A stretch of DNA of 64,000 bases, taken from Candidatus Latescibacterota bacterium (GTDB lineage: Bacteria; Latescibacterota; UBA2968). The notes beneath the pieces are model-generated. The model did no database searches, was not told the DNA's origin, and saw only the letters and a program-made list of their open reading frames with translations. Location: assembly GCA_965198115.1 (NCBI GenBank), contig OZ240241.1, positions 6,400,001 through 6,464,000 of the forward strand, read 5' to 3'. Below, one piece after another: positions 29,944 to 37,100 of the stretch. Position 1 is the stretch's first letter, and each line of letters begins with the position of its first letter. A program made the position numbers and the translations under genes.

Positions 29944-30735
29944 TCATAATTGCAGTACCAGGCTTCCTTCGTTCAGGCCCTCCAATTTTTCAATATTGGG
30001 GCGCCGGTCGAAGAATTGATTGGTGTCGTGAAGAAAAGCGTATTTGCCTCCACGGTCGCAACCCTTCTCGAGTGCCACCCTGTTGATTTCCTCGATGTTG
30101 TTGTAGCCGCCCCATAAAACTCCGTTCTGACAGTAGGACGTGTCGATGAAGTAACGTTTGAAGGTCTGTCCGCCTGGTTTGGGACGACGACAGTGCTGCA
30201 CCGCGGAATGTAAGATGATGAAGGAGCCTGGCGGAAGGTCGTCGTAGGTCCTCGACCGGGGAAGATCTTCGAATTCGAACTGACGGAATGCGTCACCGTT
30301 CATGATCTTCTTGTGCGATCCAGGCAGTACGAGCAGGTCGCCTACCTCACCGTTCAACCCATCCAGATACATAAAGACGTGGACCATCAGGTGTGACCGG
30401 TTTGTTTGTGGCGTTTGGACGTAATCGTGATGCCACGCGACACCCCGCTCCCCTTCGCCCTGCCAACGGGCGTGGATATGATGGTGCGTGAACTCTTTGC
30501 CGTCCATCAGGTCGGCGACGCGATCGACGACGATGGGCTCGGATGTGAGCATTGCGAGCTCGTCGTAGCTGACGATCATCTTCCTTTCACCCTGCTCCCG
30601 GTCTTCCATCATCAAGTCGACGTCATCTTTGAGACGTTGGTTCAGGTCGTCGTCGAACAGGCCCTCGAAGACGAGATAGCCTTCTTCGTCGAATCGCTCC
30701 AGATCGTCTCGCGTGAGGTGATTCAGATCCGCCAT
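29944..30735 (-). CDS. PhyH-family dioxygenase
   Basis: FDEEGYL, WHHD, LPGSH, HSAVQH. Confidence 0.85.
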   Translation of the reverse strand: MADLNHLTRDDLERFDEEGYLVFEGLFDDDLNQRLKDDVDLMMEDREQGERKMIVSYDELAMLTSEPIVVDRVADLMDGKEFTHHHIHARWQGEGERGVAWHHDYVQTPQTNRSHLMVHVFMYLDGLNGEVGDLLVLPGSHKKIMNGDAFRQFEFEDLPRSRTYDDLPPGSFIILHSAVQHCRRPKPGGQTFKRYFIDTSYCQNGVLWGGYNNIEEINRVALEKGCDRGGKYAFLHDTNQFFDRRPNIEKLEGLNEGSLVLQL

Positions 30736-30796
30736 TGGGGTCCTCGCGTATGTAGCCTGTCTTGAACGAACGTGAGAGGTGGTTCAGGGGGTGGTT

Positions 30797-31636
30797 TCAG
30801 GCTGGTTGGCCGTTGGAGACGATGGATTTGATGTCTTTGTAGGGTCGAACCTCGAGGAGTTCGCGGGTTTCGGGGTCGAGACGTTCGATGATTTCGTCCG
30901 GCCATTCCGTGCCGATCGTGTATTGCGGCATGTAGCGGAGGGTGAGGAAGCGACGATCGCGGTCTTGGGGTTTCCAGCTGAGGGCGCCGTGAGTGACCAT
31001 TTCGGAGATCATCGCGACGTCTCCTGCTTTCGGAGTGATGTTGGCCACACCAGCCGGGACATCGAAAGACCGGTAGTCCGGACTGTAACCTCCATCGGGG
31101 GATCGGCTCCCGGGATAGAAATACTCCTCCGGGCGGTCGAACTGACTCTTGTGCGAACCTGGGACGACGAGGAGGCCACCGTCGCCGGGATGGACGTCGG
31201 TGAGGTAGACGAAGATGACGAGGTGATCGCAGAGGACTCTGTCCTTTCCGATCAGATAGTAGGGCGCCTCGGGTCCACGCGTACCAGTCCCTTCGCGCTG
31301 GGAATGGAGGGGATGGAACTCGTGCGTGTGGTTGTTGATCATCAGGTTGCCACTCGTGAGGCGGGGCCGGTCGTGCATCAGCTCCAGTACGATCGGCCAG
31401 AAGGACGGATGACGTGTCAGTCGCTCGAGGGCCTTGTCGAAGGCGATCCCGAAGAAGTGCCAGATGAAGTGGTTGCGTTCGCGATCGACACGGAAGCCAG
31501 GCGGCAATTCGTCATCGGTGGTTCTCAGGTAACGCTCAGCCGCGTCCTGAGCGGCGGAAAGCTCATCAGACGTCAGCGCATCGGGGATGTGTAGGTAACC
31601 GGTCAGGTCGAAGAAGTAGCGTTGCTCGGGTGTCAT
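30797..31636 (-). CDS. PhyH-family dioxygenase
   Basis: MTPEQRYFFDLTGYL, LHSQ, VPGSHK, VTHG. Confidence 0.85.
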   Translation of the reverse strand: MTPEQRYFFDLTGYLHIPDALTSDELSAAQDAAERYLRTTDDELPPGFRVDRERNHFIWHFFGIAFDKALERLTRHPSFWPIVLELMHDRPRLTSGNLMINNHTHEFHPLHSQREGTGTRGPEAPYYLIGKDRVLCDHLVIFVYLTDVHPGDGGLLVVPGSHKSQFDRPEEYFYPGSRSPDGGYSPDYRSFDVPAGVANITPKAGDVAMISEMVTHGALSWKPQDRDRRFLTLRYMPQYTIGTEWPDEIIERLDPETRELLEVRPYKDIKSIVSNGQPA

Positions 31637-31840
31637 GGGGAAGACCTCGAAAAGTGGGGACCACGGAATACACGGAAGGGGGCGTCCGTGGAATCGAGGC
31701 CTATTCGGGGAGAGGATCGGTAAACCAAGTAAAAGAAAAAACTGGAACCACCTCTCACGTTCGTTCGAGGCAGGCTCCACACATTAATAACACGAACGGG
31801 ATACCGAGCAACAGAGATCGAAATGACTTGGCGGCGTGAT

Positions 31841-32599
31841 TCAGGTTGAGATGCCGAAGGCTTCGTTGTAGAGACGTGAGACGTCGTTCAAGTTGCCGTA
31901 GAAGGCGCGGGTTTCGGGGTCCGGGTCGTCTTTCCAGAGTCTGGGGGGGATGATGGAGTCGTTGGCGAGGAACTTTCGATCGCGATGTCCGTAGTAGGTC
32001 TGGGTCGTCTTGCGTTCGGCCTGCGTGGGGCGCGTCGTGGCGGTGTGCAGGACGGCGACGTTGAACAGGCAGACTGTTCCGGCCTGGCCGTGGATGTCGA
32101 CGATGCCACCGCGTTCGAGTTGAGCCTCCTTGTCCTCGAGAATGGGCTGATCGACGGATTCCGGCGAGAGGGAGAAACAGTGTGTCGATTCGCTCACGTC
32201 CGCGAGGTAGACCATACTCTGGATGTAATCCACCCGATACGGATGTTCCGGCCAATGGGGGCGATCGCGATGCCAGCCGCGGTGCAACTCGCCATCATAG
32301 GGTCCCATATGACGCGCACCGATCTCGCCGAAACAGATCGGTCCTCCCATCAGCTCGACAGCGGCCTCGAGAATCGGCGGATGACGCACGATTCGGTCGT
32401 ATCCGGAGGACGTTACGAGGGCGTCGTAGTTCGCGGATTGGTGGTAGCCATAGCGGTGCCAACGATACGCGTAGGTTTCTTTGTCGGTGTCGAAGATCTC
32501 AACGAAGTCTTCCAGTTCGGCCACGGAGATGAGGTCGGTGTGTACGATGTAGCCGTTCTGGCGGAAGAAATCGAGTTCGGTGGATGTGAGGATGGACAT
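31841..32599 (-). CDS. PhyH-family dioxygenase
   Basis: FFRQNGY, WHRD, AVLHTA. Confidence 0.85.
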   Translation of the reverse strand: MSILTSTELDFFRQNGYIVHTDLISVAELEDFVEIFDTDKETYAYRWHRYGYHQSANYDALVTSSGYDRIVRHPPILEAAVELMGGPICFGEIGARHMGPYDGELHRGWHRDRPHWPEHPYRVDYIQSMVYLADVSESTHCFSLSPESVDQPILEDKEAQLERGGIVDIHGQAGTVCLFNVAVLHTATTRPTQAERKTTQTYYGHRDRKFLANDSIIPPRLWKDDPDPETRAFYGNLNDVSRLYNEAFGIST

Positions 32600-32705
32600 A
32601 TAGGCAGAAGTTAAAATGAAAAAATTGGCGAGGACGAAGATCGGGATGTCGCTCCAAATGTCAAGCGATGCTGAGTGATCCACCGCAGAGCCGTAGGGAT
32701 TGACT

Positions 32706-32826
32706 TGTCTTCCCGGCATTGTTTCAAGCCGGGATCCATTCTCTGATTGGAAGATTCGTTACGCGCAAGCGCTTTCACGAAGATCAAAATGGGCCCGCCC
32801 CGGCACAAAAGCGTACCGGGGTGACA
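32706..32826. repeat. REP-like composite palindrome family A (also 34618-34734, 48155-48258, 51830-51970)
   Basis: TGTCATCCCGGC..GCCGGGATCC paired with TGGACCCCGG..CCGGGGTGAC; four intergenic copies. Confidence 0.75.
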
Positions 32827-32883
32827 CTTGTCTTTGTGTTGTGGCTATGGAGGTTCCGACTACGAAGGATTAGGGAGATTGGA

Positions 32884-33828
32884 TCAAGTGATGGCGTCGA
32901 TGACGGTCTGGTGGCCCCGATCTTCTGCGACGCTTCTTGGTGTGCGATCATCGGCGTCGGCCAGGGAGGGATCGGCGCCCTGCTTGATGAGTCGTTCGAC
33001 GATTCTGGGCAGGCCTTCCTCGGCGCAGAGGATGAGGGGGCGGTGCCGGGCGATTCCGTTGGGGTCTGCGCCCGCGTCCAGCAAGGCATCGACGAGGGAG
33101 AGGGATCTGGCGATTTTAATCGCGATGTCGAGAGGGGTCACACCTGCGATGTTCGGCTCGTACAGACGGGCACGCCGGCGTGGGATGTATAGCGCGGACA
33201 GTCTGCCCCGACCGAGTGCTTCCTGAAATGCGATTTCGCCGTCAGCGATCTGAGCTCGTAGGTTCTCACCACTGATCCACCAGCCCGGTAACTCGTACAT
33301 CACCGTAAACCCCATCCGCCTGTAAAGATGCTCGCAGAGACGGGAGGCGCTCGTGGCGATGTAGCGACAGCCGGCTTTTTCCACCTGTCGACAGACATGT
33401 TCCATTAACACGGTTCCGATGTCCTTTCCCCGCCCTCTTGGCCGGACGGCCACATCGTGGAGGGAGCCTATGCCGGTAGGGCCGGGCGTCAGCGCGAGCG
33501 TGGCGTGCCCTACAAGGCCGTGTCGGTCCCAGGCGGCGAAATAGTGGACACGATGCGGCGACTCGTCCATCATTCGGTTCATCGCCCTGATCATCGTTTC
33601 TGAATGGAAGTGGAGATCATCGCTCTCGACAGCTGGGACTTCCGAGGGTCTGGTGAACCGGATTCCACGAGCTGTCGAGGGGGCATCGTTCCGGTTCTTC
33701 ACGTCGAGCCACATCCCCCGATTGGCGTCGGGATACCAGCAGAAGCCACGTGCGACGAGGCGTGCACCAAGATCCGCGGGCCTGATTCGCGGTCTTGCCC
33801 CGAAGGCCAGGCGGGGGCCGTTGCTGGC
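32884..33828 (-). CDS. GNAT acetyltransferase-ankyrin repeat fusion, probably 5'-truncated
   Basis: PADLGARLVARGF, VAVRPRGRGKDIG, LYRRMGF; ankyrin TPLDIA...LLDAGADPN, LIKQGADPS. Confidence 0.75.
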   Translation of the reverse strand, partial: ASNGPRLAFGARPRIRPADLGARLVARGFCWYPDANRGMWLDVKNRNDAPSTARGIRFTRPSEVPAVESDDLHFHSETMIRAMNRMMDESPHRVHYFAAWDRHGLVGHATLALTPGPTGIGSLHDVAVRPRGRGKDIGTVLMEHVCRQVEKAGCRYIATSASRLCEHLYRRMGFTVMYELPGWWISGENLRAQIADGEIAFQEALGRGRLSALYIPRRRARLYEPNIAGVTPLDIAIKIARSLSLVDALLDAGADPNGIARHRPLILCAEEGLPRIVERLIKQGADPSLADADDRTPRSVAEDRGHQTVIDAIT

Positions 33829-34564
33829 TTACTACTGGACCCGCAACAGCGTCGATGCCGAAGACATCGTGCAGGAAGCGATGTTCCAGGCGATGGAGCA
33901 GCTCGAGACGCTCCGGGATCCGGATCGTTTCGCACCGTGGGTCCGCACGATCGCGACGAACCTGTGCCGTATGTGGCATCGCGAGCGGCACCGATCGGTT
34001 GGATCTCTCGACGATCCTGACCTGGTACCCGTCCGCGATGCATTACCCAGTGCGGAGCCCCAACCCTCGGATGTGGTTGAAGCCGGCGAACGGGATTGGC
34101 TGATCGGAGAGATGCTCGAGCGGTTGCCCAAGCAAGCTCGACTGACGGCGACGCTCTACTACCTGAGAGAGCTGTCCTACGACGAAATTGGGACGTTCTT
34201 GGACATTCCCTCAGCCACCGTGCGAGTGAGACTTCACAGGGCACGGAAACTGCTCAAAAAGGAGGCGATACAGATGTTCTCCGATTTCGCAGGTGACTCA
34301 CAGTCGACGCAGGTTGAACTGAAGGATTCGGAGGGATATCTCCACGTTCAGGAGAAGGGGTGGGGGTTTCTCAGACCAGAGCAAGGTGCAGAATCCGATC
34401 CGGATGACATCTATGTCTCACACAGCCAGATTAAACGGTTCGGGTTGAAAGAAGAGGATCGGATCGCCGGTCCGGCGCGGCCGCCCAGGGGAGAGGAAGG
34501 ATACTGGGCGCTCATCCGACTTGTGGAGGTGAATGGAGAACCCCATAAAACCAGTGAAAAGTGA
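33821..34564 (+). CDS. ECF sigma-70 factor fused to a Rho RNA-binding domain (5' end missing)
   Basis: DAEDIVQE, FAPWVRTIATN, LSYDEIG...TVRVRLHRAR; then GWGFLR...PDDIYVSHSQIKRFGL...RPP. Confidence 0.85.
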   Translation: MLAYYWTRNSVDAEDIVQEAMFQAMEQLETLRDPDRFAPWVRTIATNLCRMWHRERHRSVGSLDDPDLVPVRDALPSAEPQPSDVVEAGERDWLIGEMLERLPKQARLTATLYYLRELSYDEIGTFLDIPSATVRVRLHRARKLLKKEAIQMFSDFAGDSQSTQVELKDSEGYLHVQEKGWGFLRPEQGAESDPDDIYVSHSQIKRFGLKEEDRIAGPARPPRGEEGYWALIRLVEVNGEPHKTSEK

Positions 34565-34793
34565 AAAATGAAAATTTGCCTACTGCTTGTTGCAGGTCGT
34601 TTCCTCATCCAACCCGCTGTCATCCCGGCAGGCTGCAGGCCGGGATCTGTTTCCAGCCCTTATGTAAGGTGTTCTTCCTCAGATTCTTCGACCGACCAGG
34701 ATGGACCCCGGCCAGGATCCGAGCCGGGGTGACGATTCCATTCCAATCGTGAGGCATTGCTCTTGTCGTCCACGACGGTGATGGCGATTCTTA

Positions 34794-37100
34794 GTGCCGT
34801 CCTTAACGAGGAAAGCGATGCAGATTCCGGTCGAAACTATTCACATTGCTGCTGCGGAAGCGGATGACGATCTCACATTCGCGGCGGTCTACGCGGCTGA
34901 CGAGATTGCGTATGTGAGCGGTGTTCGCCCGCACGTAACACCGCGATCGAACCCAGAAGGATTCTACACCCTTCGCGTCGACCGGCGCGATGGATTGCCC
35001 GCCGACAGCTATACGATTACGTCCGACGAAGCGTCACTCACGATATCCTCCTCATCCAGACGGGGCCTGCTGTTCGGGATCGGCCGGTTTCTTCGACTGA
35101 GTCCCTTCCGAGATGACTGTCTGGACATTCCTGCTGATCTGGATCTGCAGTTCTCGCCTTCCAGCCGTATTCGCGGCTACCAGATCGGCTACGGCCATCT
35201 GAGCAACAGTATGGATTCCTGGTCGGTCGCCCAGTTCGATCGATACATCCGGGACCTGGTTCTGTTCGGATGCAACGCGATCGAGATCGAGTACAAACCG
35301 GACCCCAGCCCTCATCACAAGCTTCCGTTCGACGAGATGACGGCCGAACTGTCCATTCTTGCAGCACGATACGACCTCGATTGCACCGTCTGGATTCCGA
35401 ACTGGGAAGACGAAGCCTACTATCTCGACACCGTGGCCTCCGGACGAGAGTTGGAGGATCGCGGACGCTTCTTTCACATTCTGCCAAAGATTTCCGCTAT
35501 CACCGTTCCCGGGGGAGATCCGGGCAAGCTGAGTCCGGATGTCCTGTTCCCCTGGGTTCAACGTCTCACCGAGACGCTGGCCTCCAGTGGTCATCCACCC
35601 CTGGCCTGGGTTTCCGCCCAGTGGATGAGAGCGGATACGGCGTGGTACGATGCCTTTTCCCGGCAGGCGAACAGGAATCCGGGTTGGTTGGCGGGTATCG
35701 TACACGGGCCGTGGACTCAGCTTTCGATACCGGAGCTGAGGGCCCGACTTCGCAGTGACCTGCCGATCCGGCGATACGACGATTTGACGCACGGCATATT
35801 CTGCCAATACCCGATTCCGGATTGGGATCTCGCCCACGCGATGACGTCCGGCCGCGAGTCGATCAATCCTCGACCAAAAGCCTACAAACATATCCACAAT
35901 CTTTACCACCGTGATACCGTTGGCAGCACGCCTCACACCACTGGCATCAACGCGGATATCAACACATTCGTGTGGTTGGACCAGGAGTGGGATCCAGATA
36001 CGGCTCCGCGTGACACGCTGAAAGATTACACACGCATCTTTCTATCCACGGACCTGGAAGATGAATTCGCGGACGGCGCGCTGGCACTCGAGGAGAACTG
36101 GGAAGGGGCCCTCGCGGCGAACGAAAGTGTAGAGGAGACGCTCGACCGGTGGAAACAGCTCGAGCAATCGGCCGATCCTGATGTGAACGCACACTGGCGA
36201 TTTCAATGCCCGTTGCTCAGGGTCTATTACGATGCGTCGGTGCGGAGAAGACTGGTTCGTGAAAGAAGGACAGCGGAACGGGCGGTCGAGGAACTCTCTT
36301 CGGATCGATCGAGGGAGGCCGTTCATCGGGCACTTACGTGGCTGGAGGAACGAACGACGGACTCAATCGAAATCGAGCTGCGCGAGAAATGCGTGAACCT
36401 ATCAAAATCGCTGTTCAGATCCGTTGGGCTCAAATCGTCTGTGGACGAACACGGCGCGGCACAGAAGGGCCGTGGGGCGTTTATGGACGCGATCGATGAG
36501 CCGCTGAACGACTCGAGATGGCTGATCAACCATCTCGAGGAGGCATTGGCGGCAGAATCCCCCTCGGAGAGATGGTCACGCGTTGGTGCGATTCTAGACC
36601 GGTCAGATTCCGGATATGGAGGGATCTACGACAACCTTGGAACACACGAGCAAATCGGTCGGCTGGTGAATCCTGTTGACGTGTCGGAAGACCCCGGGGG
36701 ACTGGCGGGTTCTCGATCGGCATTCGGGATCGCGTTGGAAGGGATGCTCCGATCGCAAACGGTTGAGATCAAGTCACACGACGGTTACCCGATCCCAAAG
36801 GCGTGGTTGACCTGTGTGGAGTCGATTTACGACACCCCGCTGATTCTGGCGTATGACGGATTGGAAGATGGGAGTGCTTATACCCTGCGCATCGTCTACT
36901 CGAGTAGGATCGGCAAGTTGGCCAAACTGGTCGCGAACGACCATGTTGTGCACGATCTGATCGCGACGGGGGATGAGCCTTTGAAAAAGTTCGAGATTCC
37001 GGCAGGGGTTGTGCGGGATGGAAAGCTCGAGCTTCGATGGACGGGTGGCGGGGAGCGTGGGGTACAGGTGGCTGAGCTGTGGATAACGCCCAAGCATTGA
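34794..37100 (+). CDS. Large hypothetical protein, glycoside hydrolase-like (GH20/GH67-type N-terminal domain)
   Basis: DSYTI...RGLLFGIGRFLR, RIRGYQIGY; 768-aa ORF with coding-like composition. Confidence 0.6.
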   Translation: MPSLTRKAMQIPVETIHIAAAEADDDLTFAAVYAADEIAYVSGVRPHVTPRSNPEGFYTLRVDRRDGLPADSYTITSDEASLTISSSSRRGLLFGIGRFLRLSPFRDDCLDIPADLDLQFSPSSRIRGYQIGYGHLSNSMDSWSVAQFDRYIRDLVLFGCNAIEIEYKPDPSPHHKLPFDEMTAELSILAARYDLDCTVWIPNWEDEAYYLDTVASGRELEDRGRFFHILPKISAITVPGGDPGKLSPDVLFPWVQRLTETLASSGHPPLAWVSAQWMRADTAWYDAFSRQANRNPGWLAGIVHGPWTQLSIPELRARLRSDLPIRRYDDLTHGIFCQYPIPDWDLAHAMTSGRESINPRPKAYKHIHNLYHRDTVGSTPHTTGINADINTFVWLDQEWDPDTAPRDTLKDYTRIFLSTDLEDEFADGALALEENWEGALAANESVEETLDRWKQLEQSADPDVNAHWRFQCPLLRVYYDASVRRRLVRERRTAERAVEELSSDRSREAVHRALTWLEERTTDSIEIELREKCVNLSKSLFRSVGLKSSVDEHGAAQKGRGAFMDAIDEPLNDSRWLINHLEEALAAESPSERWSRVGAILDRSDSGYGGIYDNLGTHEQIGRLVNPVDVSEDPGGLAGSRSAFGIALEGMLRSQTVEIKSHDGYPIPKAWLTCVESIYDTPLILAYDGLEDGSAYTLRIVYSSRIGKLAKLVANDHVVHDLIATGDEPLKKFEIPAGVVRDGKLELRWTGGGERGVQVAELWITPKH

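Follow-up and report, generated by a model that had tools for sequence, protein, structure and literature searches.

Can a sigma factor gene run on, in a single reading frame, into a piece of the termination factor Rho, and if so, what could such a protein do? The question is raised by one frame in the window, by which we mean the whole 64,000-nucleotide stretch of a Candidatus Latescibacterota genome (G000) analysed here. The initial annotation of this stretch read the frame as an ECF sigma factor fused to the RNA-binding domain (RBD) of Rho, with no ATPase domain behind it.

An ECF sigma factor gene that ends in a Rho RNA-binding domain

That reading holds. The frame (Table 1) is free of internal stops and is also open further upstream, from a GTG at 33653 (a 303-aa open frame); the extension between this GTG and 33821 is unrelated to the N-terminus of the frame's relatives. 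In the 303-aa frame Pfam finds Sigma70_r2 (E = 9e-13, confined to positions 12-70 of the 71 in the profile), Sigma70_r4_2 (E = 5e-12) and Rho_RNA_bind (E = 4e-21), each exceeding its curated cut-off, and neither Rho_N nor an ATPase. The layout is that of ECF (group 4) sigma factors, with regions 2 and 4.2 separated by a gap of 36 aa and no Pfam match to region 1 or region 3. The TIGR02937 score is 86.9 bits (cut-off 42.9), and the structure model of a relative resembles AlgU, sigmaE and SigW. On one point the annotation needs amending: regions 2 and 4 are both present in frame, as it stated, but region 2 is incomplete, its 36 N-terminal residues having gone.

The tail scores 78.5 bits against PF07497 (cut-off 27) and aligns to residues 51-123 of E. 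coli Rho (1a62, E = 1e-14), with fold matches to 1a62 and 2a8v, which bears out the likeness to the Rho OB-fold noticed at the outset. Like Rho, it is an OB-fold, and six of seven presumed C-binding pocket residues are identical. Unlike Rho, the protein has no three-helix N-terminal bundle and no ATPase, and hence no ring, helicase or termination activity; its score against the Rho model NF006886 is 70.9 bits, below the cut-off of 315. The same genome has a separate full rho gene (C1:2671880-2673109), to whose product the fusion RBD is 47.8% identical over 90 aa, and these two are the only RBDs in the genome. Elsewhere, two rho copies with equal scores lie on separate contigs of G069 (C2 and C4), and on contig C21 of G038 the RBD of rho is in two pieces.

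Contigs from two of three runs span the junction (33300-34800) with zero differences. They come from one sample, possibly the assembly's own source, and are therefore not independent support. Independent proof comes from the identical architecture in other organisms: four other 90% clusters have the same fusion, at 82, 75, 69 and 50% identity, and two of the four contain 7 and 13 members. The fusion thus occurs in more than one genome, whereas absence from every other genome, with no reads spanning it, is what the initial annotation had named as counting against it, and an assembly chimera or a frameshift as its origin is excluded by these relatives together with the unchanged contigs. The fusion is genuine. 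A single-sequence structure model of the 303-aa frame was uninformative (pLDDT 36), and a complex prediction of contact between sigma and RBD (score 0.00) is silent either way.

Parts of the ECF classification (PMC7826278) describe C-terminal extensions that are SnoaL-like (ECF41, ECF56, ECF205, ECF294, ECF295), TPR (ECF42), Cys-rich (ECF238, ECF287, ECF288), DUF1835 (ECF264) or membrane (ECF263). The PF07497 tail matches none of these named types. A Rho RBD tail was not found in the portions consulted of that classification and its supplement or of PMC8999054, and a literature search found no report of an ECF sigma factor with a Rho RNA-binding tail. Like the extension-bearing ECFs, the fusion has regions 2 and 4.2, a short linker, a soluble fused tail, a candidate self-promoter and no visible adjacent anti-sigma gene. 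Unlike them, it has a Rho RBD as its tail, an internal start for that tail and a long leader richer in C than in G (C>G), and in the window copy region 2.1 is partly missing. Among ECF sigma factors that bear C-terminal extensions it is an undescribed variant, and it is not a Rho.

Table 1. Positions in the window of the fusion gene, its parts and the gene upstream.
Feature	Position	Strand	Length or basis
GNAT-ankyrin gene	32884..33714	-	Pfam; locus comparison with L014
5'-truncated ECF sigma-Rho RBD fusion frame	33821..34564	+	247 aa from TTG 33821
Sigma region 2, without Pfam positions 1-11 and the preceding helix	33824..33994	+	Pfam
Sigma region 4.2 (helix-turn-helix)	34103..34255	+	Pfam
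Internal Shine-Dalgarno AAGGAGG, 8-nt spacer, ATG	34259..34276	+	Pairing energy; conservation
Rho RNA-binding OB-fold domain (PF07497)	34331..34543	+	Pfam; structure; residue alignment

The missing 5' end of the window copy

Similarity to relatives starts at 33824, the equivalent of residue 37 in the relative P0127, and in the window copy sigma region 2 is missing its 36 N-terminal residues. A complete region 2 including 2.1 is present in P0127, P0133, P0006 and G054 and absent here. On the P0133 model (pLDDT 74), which has helices at residues 31-39 and 43-65 and in which residue 60 is the first shared with the window, the missing part comprises the first helix and 17 of the 23 residues of the second. 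We found no remnant of the 5' end upstream of 33824, where 1852 and 1338 of 2000 shuffles score equally well. A frameshifted remnant was rejected for want of any significant DNA or protein likeness in this interval, and a hand-picked local alignment there failed the shuffle test. The promoter motif shared by relatives is likewise absent upstream of the window copy.

The place is taken by the GNAT-ankyrin gene. In the syntenic locus L014, flanked as here by the PhyH gene and, at the opposite end, by the large gene, its position is occupied by a HAD-type hydrolase gene (a predicted label, from reading the sequence and not from a scan), the ECF promoter motif, the C-rich leader and the sigma gene's 5' end. 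In a same-genus genome the HAD-type gene also adjoins PhyH, and the fusion is absent.

Several features of the surroundings may be recorded here. The GNAT-ankyrin gene is rare, with one other match at E <=1e-20 among 168 genomes of the phylum. The GNAT-sigma block is bordered on either side by short intergenic repeats (32705-32837 and 34611-34733), of which the genome has several further copies. Three tandem PhyH-family dioxygenase genes lie at 29944-32719 (minus strand) and are also found in the same-genus genome. At 34794-37100 (plus strand) a 768-aa protein with no Pfam match is encoded 3' of the fusion, both here and in L014 (74% DNA identity). Two other ECF sigma genes of this genome (G000:C1:6607813-6608315 and 7080882-7081437) are split by frameshifts.

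Without promoter, leader and first 36 codons, the window copy is probably not a working sigma factor, and if transcribed it could at most yield a free RBD of 96 aa. Region 2.1 is needed for the fold of the domain and for core binding. Because part of the PMC7826278 supplement reports ECF219 members without region 2.1, loss of sigma function in the window copy is likely rather than certain. Changes unique to the window copy and changes unique to its sister are alike, and no faster evolution after the truncation is seen; with no increase in rate, either the 5' loss is recent or the remainder is still under selection. Three of the four copies found among 168 genomes of the phylum are damaged, that of G051 by a frameshift and a stop and that of G158 by an internal deletion and a stop; the copy in G054 is intact. 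As the window copy is damaged, its intact relatives are the objects to study.

Spread of the fusion and tails of its sigma relatives

By a profile search of 1.84 billion representatives we found 149 new best matches (50% representatives). An RBD is present in 13 of these, 12 of which also have sigma sequence. Some proteins consist of sigma and two RBDs (P0140, P0141, P0148, and likewise locus L017), others of sigma, RBD and Clp-N (P0142, P0143, P0163), and further RBD forms carry a bifunctional-nuclease domain or a ClpX zinc finger. Close relatives of the sigma part have other tails–FHIPEP, TPR, nuclease and amidoligase–in a Pfam scan of clade members that covered 36 of the 149 proteins. On a quick tree the RBD-bearing sigmas are scattered among these other-tail relatives, requiring 8 gains or losses, at least 2 of which are forced by well-supported branches. 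From this scatter it follows that the RBD belongs to a set of several tails that can be exchanged.

Within the phylum, a profile of the junction matched in 3 of 168 genomes, and a fourth genome (G158) has a remnant. The fusion was found in none of 176 genomes of Candidatus Poribacteria, a phylum rich in the sigma clade, in a set that held no positive control. In counting loci, L012, L015, L016 and L002 were treated as one protein, and L011 duplicates the gene of L009. The ESM Atlas returned generic ECF clusters only, with scores <0.9, and among viral contigs there were two matches, both ordinary rho genes and neither a fusion. Most fused RBDs fall outside the 80 sampled Rho rows on a quick tree of the domain (79 columns, quick search only); the Rho rows are biased to close matches, so no donor of the RBD can be named from it.

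The large ECF clade (P0140-P0288, L003-L011, L073-L097) is much expanded in Candidatus Poribacteria, where 156 of the 176 genomes match it, many with 11 of 11 scored matches. Among its tails are FHIPEP, Clp-N, ClpX zinc finger, bifunctional nuclease, amidoligase and TPR; a Shine-Dalgarno sequence (SD) and ATG stand at the sigma-tail junction nearly always. In the P0004 cluster, the helix of region 4.2 is shortened by a 2-aa deletion in 4 of 10 covering members (P0128, P0135, P0136, P0137), and P0151 lacks this helix altogether.

Leaders, internal starts and possible functions

Upstream DNA was at hand for four fusion loci (L014, G054, G051 and G158, the order of the values below). An ECF-type motif, G(T/C)AA(C/G)-N15/16-GCATC, precedes three of them, and the fourth has the same motif with a 10-nt deletion in the spacer. 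Since it also stands 5' of 7 distinct other-tail sigma genes of the clade, among 33 control loci, this candidate element is probably the clade's self-promoter. No regulon came to light: G000 has 11 motif matches at score >=17, fewer than the shuffled rate predicts, and the one strict match in G054 is its own promoter. The output may therefore be mainly the free domain. Near rho genes the motif was absent except for 2 weak matches in 33 loci, and Rfam gave 0 matches in 6 loci.

The leaders are 126, 275, 154 and 50 nt long, against about 7-58 nt for the 7 other-tail genes with the same motif. With the last 20 nt left out of the calculation, the fusion leaders have a C>G skew of +0.27, +0.26, +0.36 and +0.25. 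The share of 3452 upstream regions of G000 that are equally skewed is 0.039, 0.012, 0.006 and 0.154, and against segments of the same locus the skew is borderline (0.084, 0.052, 0.043 and 0.124). In 3 of the 33 control loci the upstream skew is above that of every fusion locus; the short leaders of controls owe their high G content to their SD. All four fusion loci lack an SD at the sigma start itself, against 3 of 33 controls (L007, L008, L074). Two of these controls, L008 and L074, have C-rich upstream DNA and tails apparently of the bifunctional-nuclease type, as read from their sequence; genes with nucleic-acid-binding tails may share an SD-less, C-rich 5' design.

Parts of PMC6144790 and PMC12360218 describe rut sites as weakly structured C>G stretches of 60-90 nt that poor translation exposes, and PMC6144790, in part, puts C>G bubbles at about ten times the number of real terminators. 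The C>G leaders of the relatives lend indirect support to the idea, raised in the initial annotation, of a sigma factor that would shield rut sites. The L014 leader folds more stably than its shuffles (z -2.2); those of G054 and G051 have no extra stability. Upstream regions of native rho genes in the phylum have a mean skew of +0.21 (31 loci), and that of the window's genome has +0.36, a bias that autogenous limitation by Rho would predict. The latter region lies at about 2671560-2671760 of G000:C1, and further rho loci of the phylum are L035-L066.

At the junction, AAGGAGG occupies 34259-34265 (its GGAGG 34261-34265) and is followed 8 nt downstream by ATG at 34274-34276, from which a free RBD of 96 aa (34274-34564) is predicted. 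This SD has the strongest pairing of 14 in-frame starts, -11.8 kcal/mol, compared with -6.3 for TTG 33821. Just before the Met, four of the five distinct fusion loci read AAG GAG GC and the remaining one reads ACG GAG GC. For single genes the junction SD is mostly non-significant (p 0.04-0.40 in the five fusion loci, 0.40 in the window). Across 32 distinct junctions, taken from 38 clade loci after setting aside 1 without a Met and 5 duplicate or unscored, the summed pairing is -323 kcal/mol, against -188 expected from synonymous codons, a level reached in 0 of 300 synonymous-codon simulations; the 32 genes are kin and so not independent. The internal start proposed in the initial annotation is thus present and conserved in relatives, but as judged from these junctions it belongs to the sigma clade at large and is not specific to the RBD. 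The annotation had overlooked this, as it had the loss of promoter, leader and 36 codons and the status of the RBD as one swappable module.

Both halves of the fusion are under strong purifying selection in the comparison of window and L014 sequences (dN 0.14 and dS 1.3 for region 2, 0.125 and 1.7 for region 4, 0.149 and 2.6 for the RBD). Tentatively, we read the intact family members as a self-amplifying sigma switch that Rho keeps off by terminating transcripts within the leader. This is the simplest account to accommodate the fusion, the kept contact residues, the common motif, the long C>G leader lacking an SD and the internal start together, and it is possible but stops short of being probable. 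The sigma factor would transcribe its own gene from the shared motif, and the C-rich, poorly translated 5' region would load Rho, so that most transcripts ended early. When Rho was limiting or inhibited, read-through would give a little full-length sigma-RBD and, via the internal start, more free RBD; the RBD would bind C-rich single-stranded RNA, its own leader included, and compete with Rho, locking the gene on. Counting against the switch are the damage to three of the four copies in the phylum, the small number of leaders (four) and their borderline skew within their own loci, the three controls with higher skew, the abundance of C>G bubbles, the stable fold of the L014 leader, the mostly non-significant junction SD of single genes, the departures at L58 and R109, the failure to find a regulon, and the likelihood that a single RBD would be a poor competitor for the six-site Rho ring.

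Leader attenuation by Rho with antitermination by a protein or sRNA is known from the rpoS leader and from CsrA at ABUW_1645 (PMC12360218, in part), and Rof is a Rho inhibitor (PMC11018626, in part). As in those cases, Rho would gate a sigma mRNA at the leader, according to the prediction, and a factor would keep Rho from loading; unlike them, the putative blocker is a copy of Rho's own RBD, in frame with the sigma factor. More broadly, the gene could be a one-gene sensor of Rho activity, its mRNA a Rho target and its frame the source of a free RBD that shields C-rich RNA, and the clade a set of self-driven cassettes, each producing its cargo domain, borrowed from an essential machine, both fused to the sigma factor and in free form. 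We regard this extension as doubtful. If true, it would couple the initiation of transcription directly to its termination: by way of its own mRNA and a domain taken from Rho, a sigma factor would sense what state Rho is in. To judge by the internal start found across the clade, it seems that many 'fused' ECF genes yield two proteins.

The RNA-contact residues bear on all readings. We take F64, R66, D78, Y80, E108, Y110 and L58 to be the core RNA-pocket residues of Rho, and the window RBD keeps the first six and has Q for L58. Across 28 RBD copies that do not belong to Rho (sigma-linked genes supply 26, Clp-N proteins 2), F64 is kept in 25, R66 in 27, D78 in 24, Y80 in 24, E108 in 23 and Y110 in 21. 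Position 58 is L in 79 of 80 Rho rows and in only 5 of the 28 copies. The window RBD further departs from Rho in having K for D60 and, in the window copy alone, G for R109; E56 also differs from Rho in the fusion RBD. At the extended RNA site of Rho, for which Q85, R88, F89 and K115 are named in part of PMC11018626, the first three are kept in the window and K115 is conservatively replaced by R.

This pattern would suit an RBD that acts as a built-in ligand sensor, in the manner of the SnoaL or Cys-rich tails of other ECF groups, in which binding of short ssRNA or ssDNA toggles the attached sigma factor independently of Rho termination. The pocket is kept while L58 and E56 depart from Rho, which may mean a different ligand; tandem RBDs would add avidity; and C-terminal extensions are the second commonest mode of ECF control, with 19 groups (PMC7826278, in part). 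However, a ligand sensor leaves the internal start and the long, C>G, SD-less leaders unexplained, and we consider it unlikely.

The conserved surface could instead be bait. A putative phage or cellular inhibitor that docks on the N-terminal domain of Rho would bind the copy and so trigger the sigma factor, and the Clp-N, ClpX zinc finger and FlhA-type FHIPEP tails would likewise be decoys of other essential machines. The clade's tails do include several pieces of housekeeping machines, often stacked, and patchy spread with frequent decay would suit a gene in conflict. Rof binds the same surface of Rho through R88, F89 and K115 (PMC11018626, in part), residues that are conserved or conservative in the fusion RBD; conservation there therefore cannot separate RNA binding from protein binding. 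Against the decoy, the dinucleotide pocket that Rof leaves free is conserved too, and the scanned neighbour genes are metabolic or modifying enzymes, so we think it decidedly unlikely.

Least credible, and in our view very unlikely, is that the fusion represents a transient outcome of shuffled domains within a tail-swapping clade, with little selected function of its own: copies in 4 of 168 genomes with three damaged, 0 of 176 in the second phylum rich in the clade, absence from the same-genus genome, the 8 gains or losses (at least 2 forced) and the region 4.2 deletion in 4 of 10 covering members of one cluster would all fit, but strong purifying selection on both halves, kept RNA-contact residues, occurrence in several lineages with tandem RBD duplications, and a leader design common to relatives do not.

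Rho RBDs have also entered proteins that are not sigma factors. In P0091 and P0113 the domain is inserted between Clp-N repeats, and on the quick tree it falls among the Rho rows, apart from most sigma-linked RBDs, perhaps as a separate capture.
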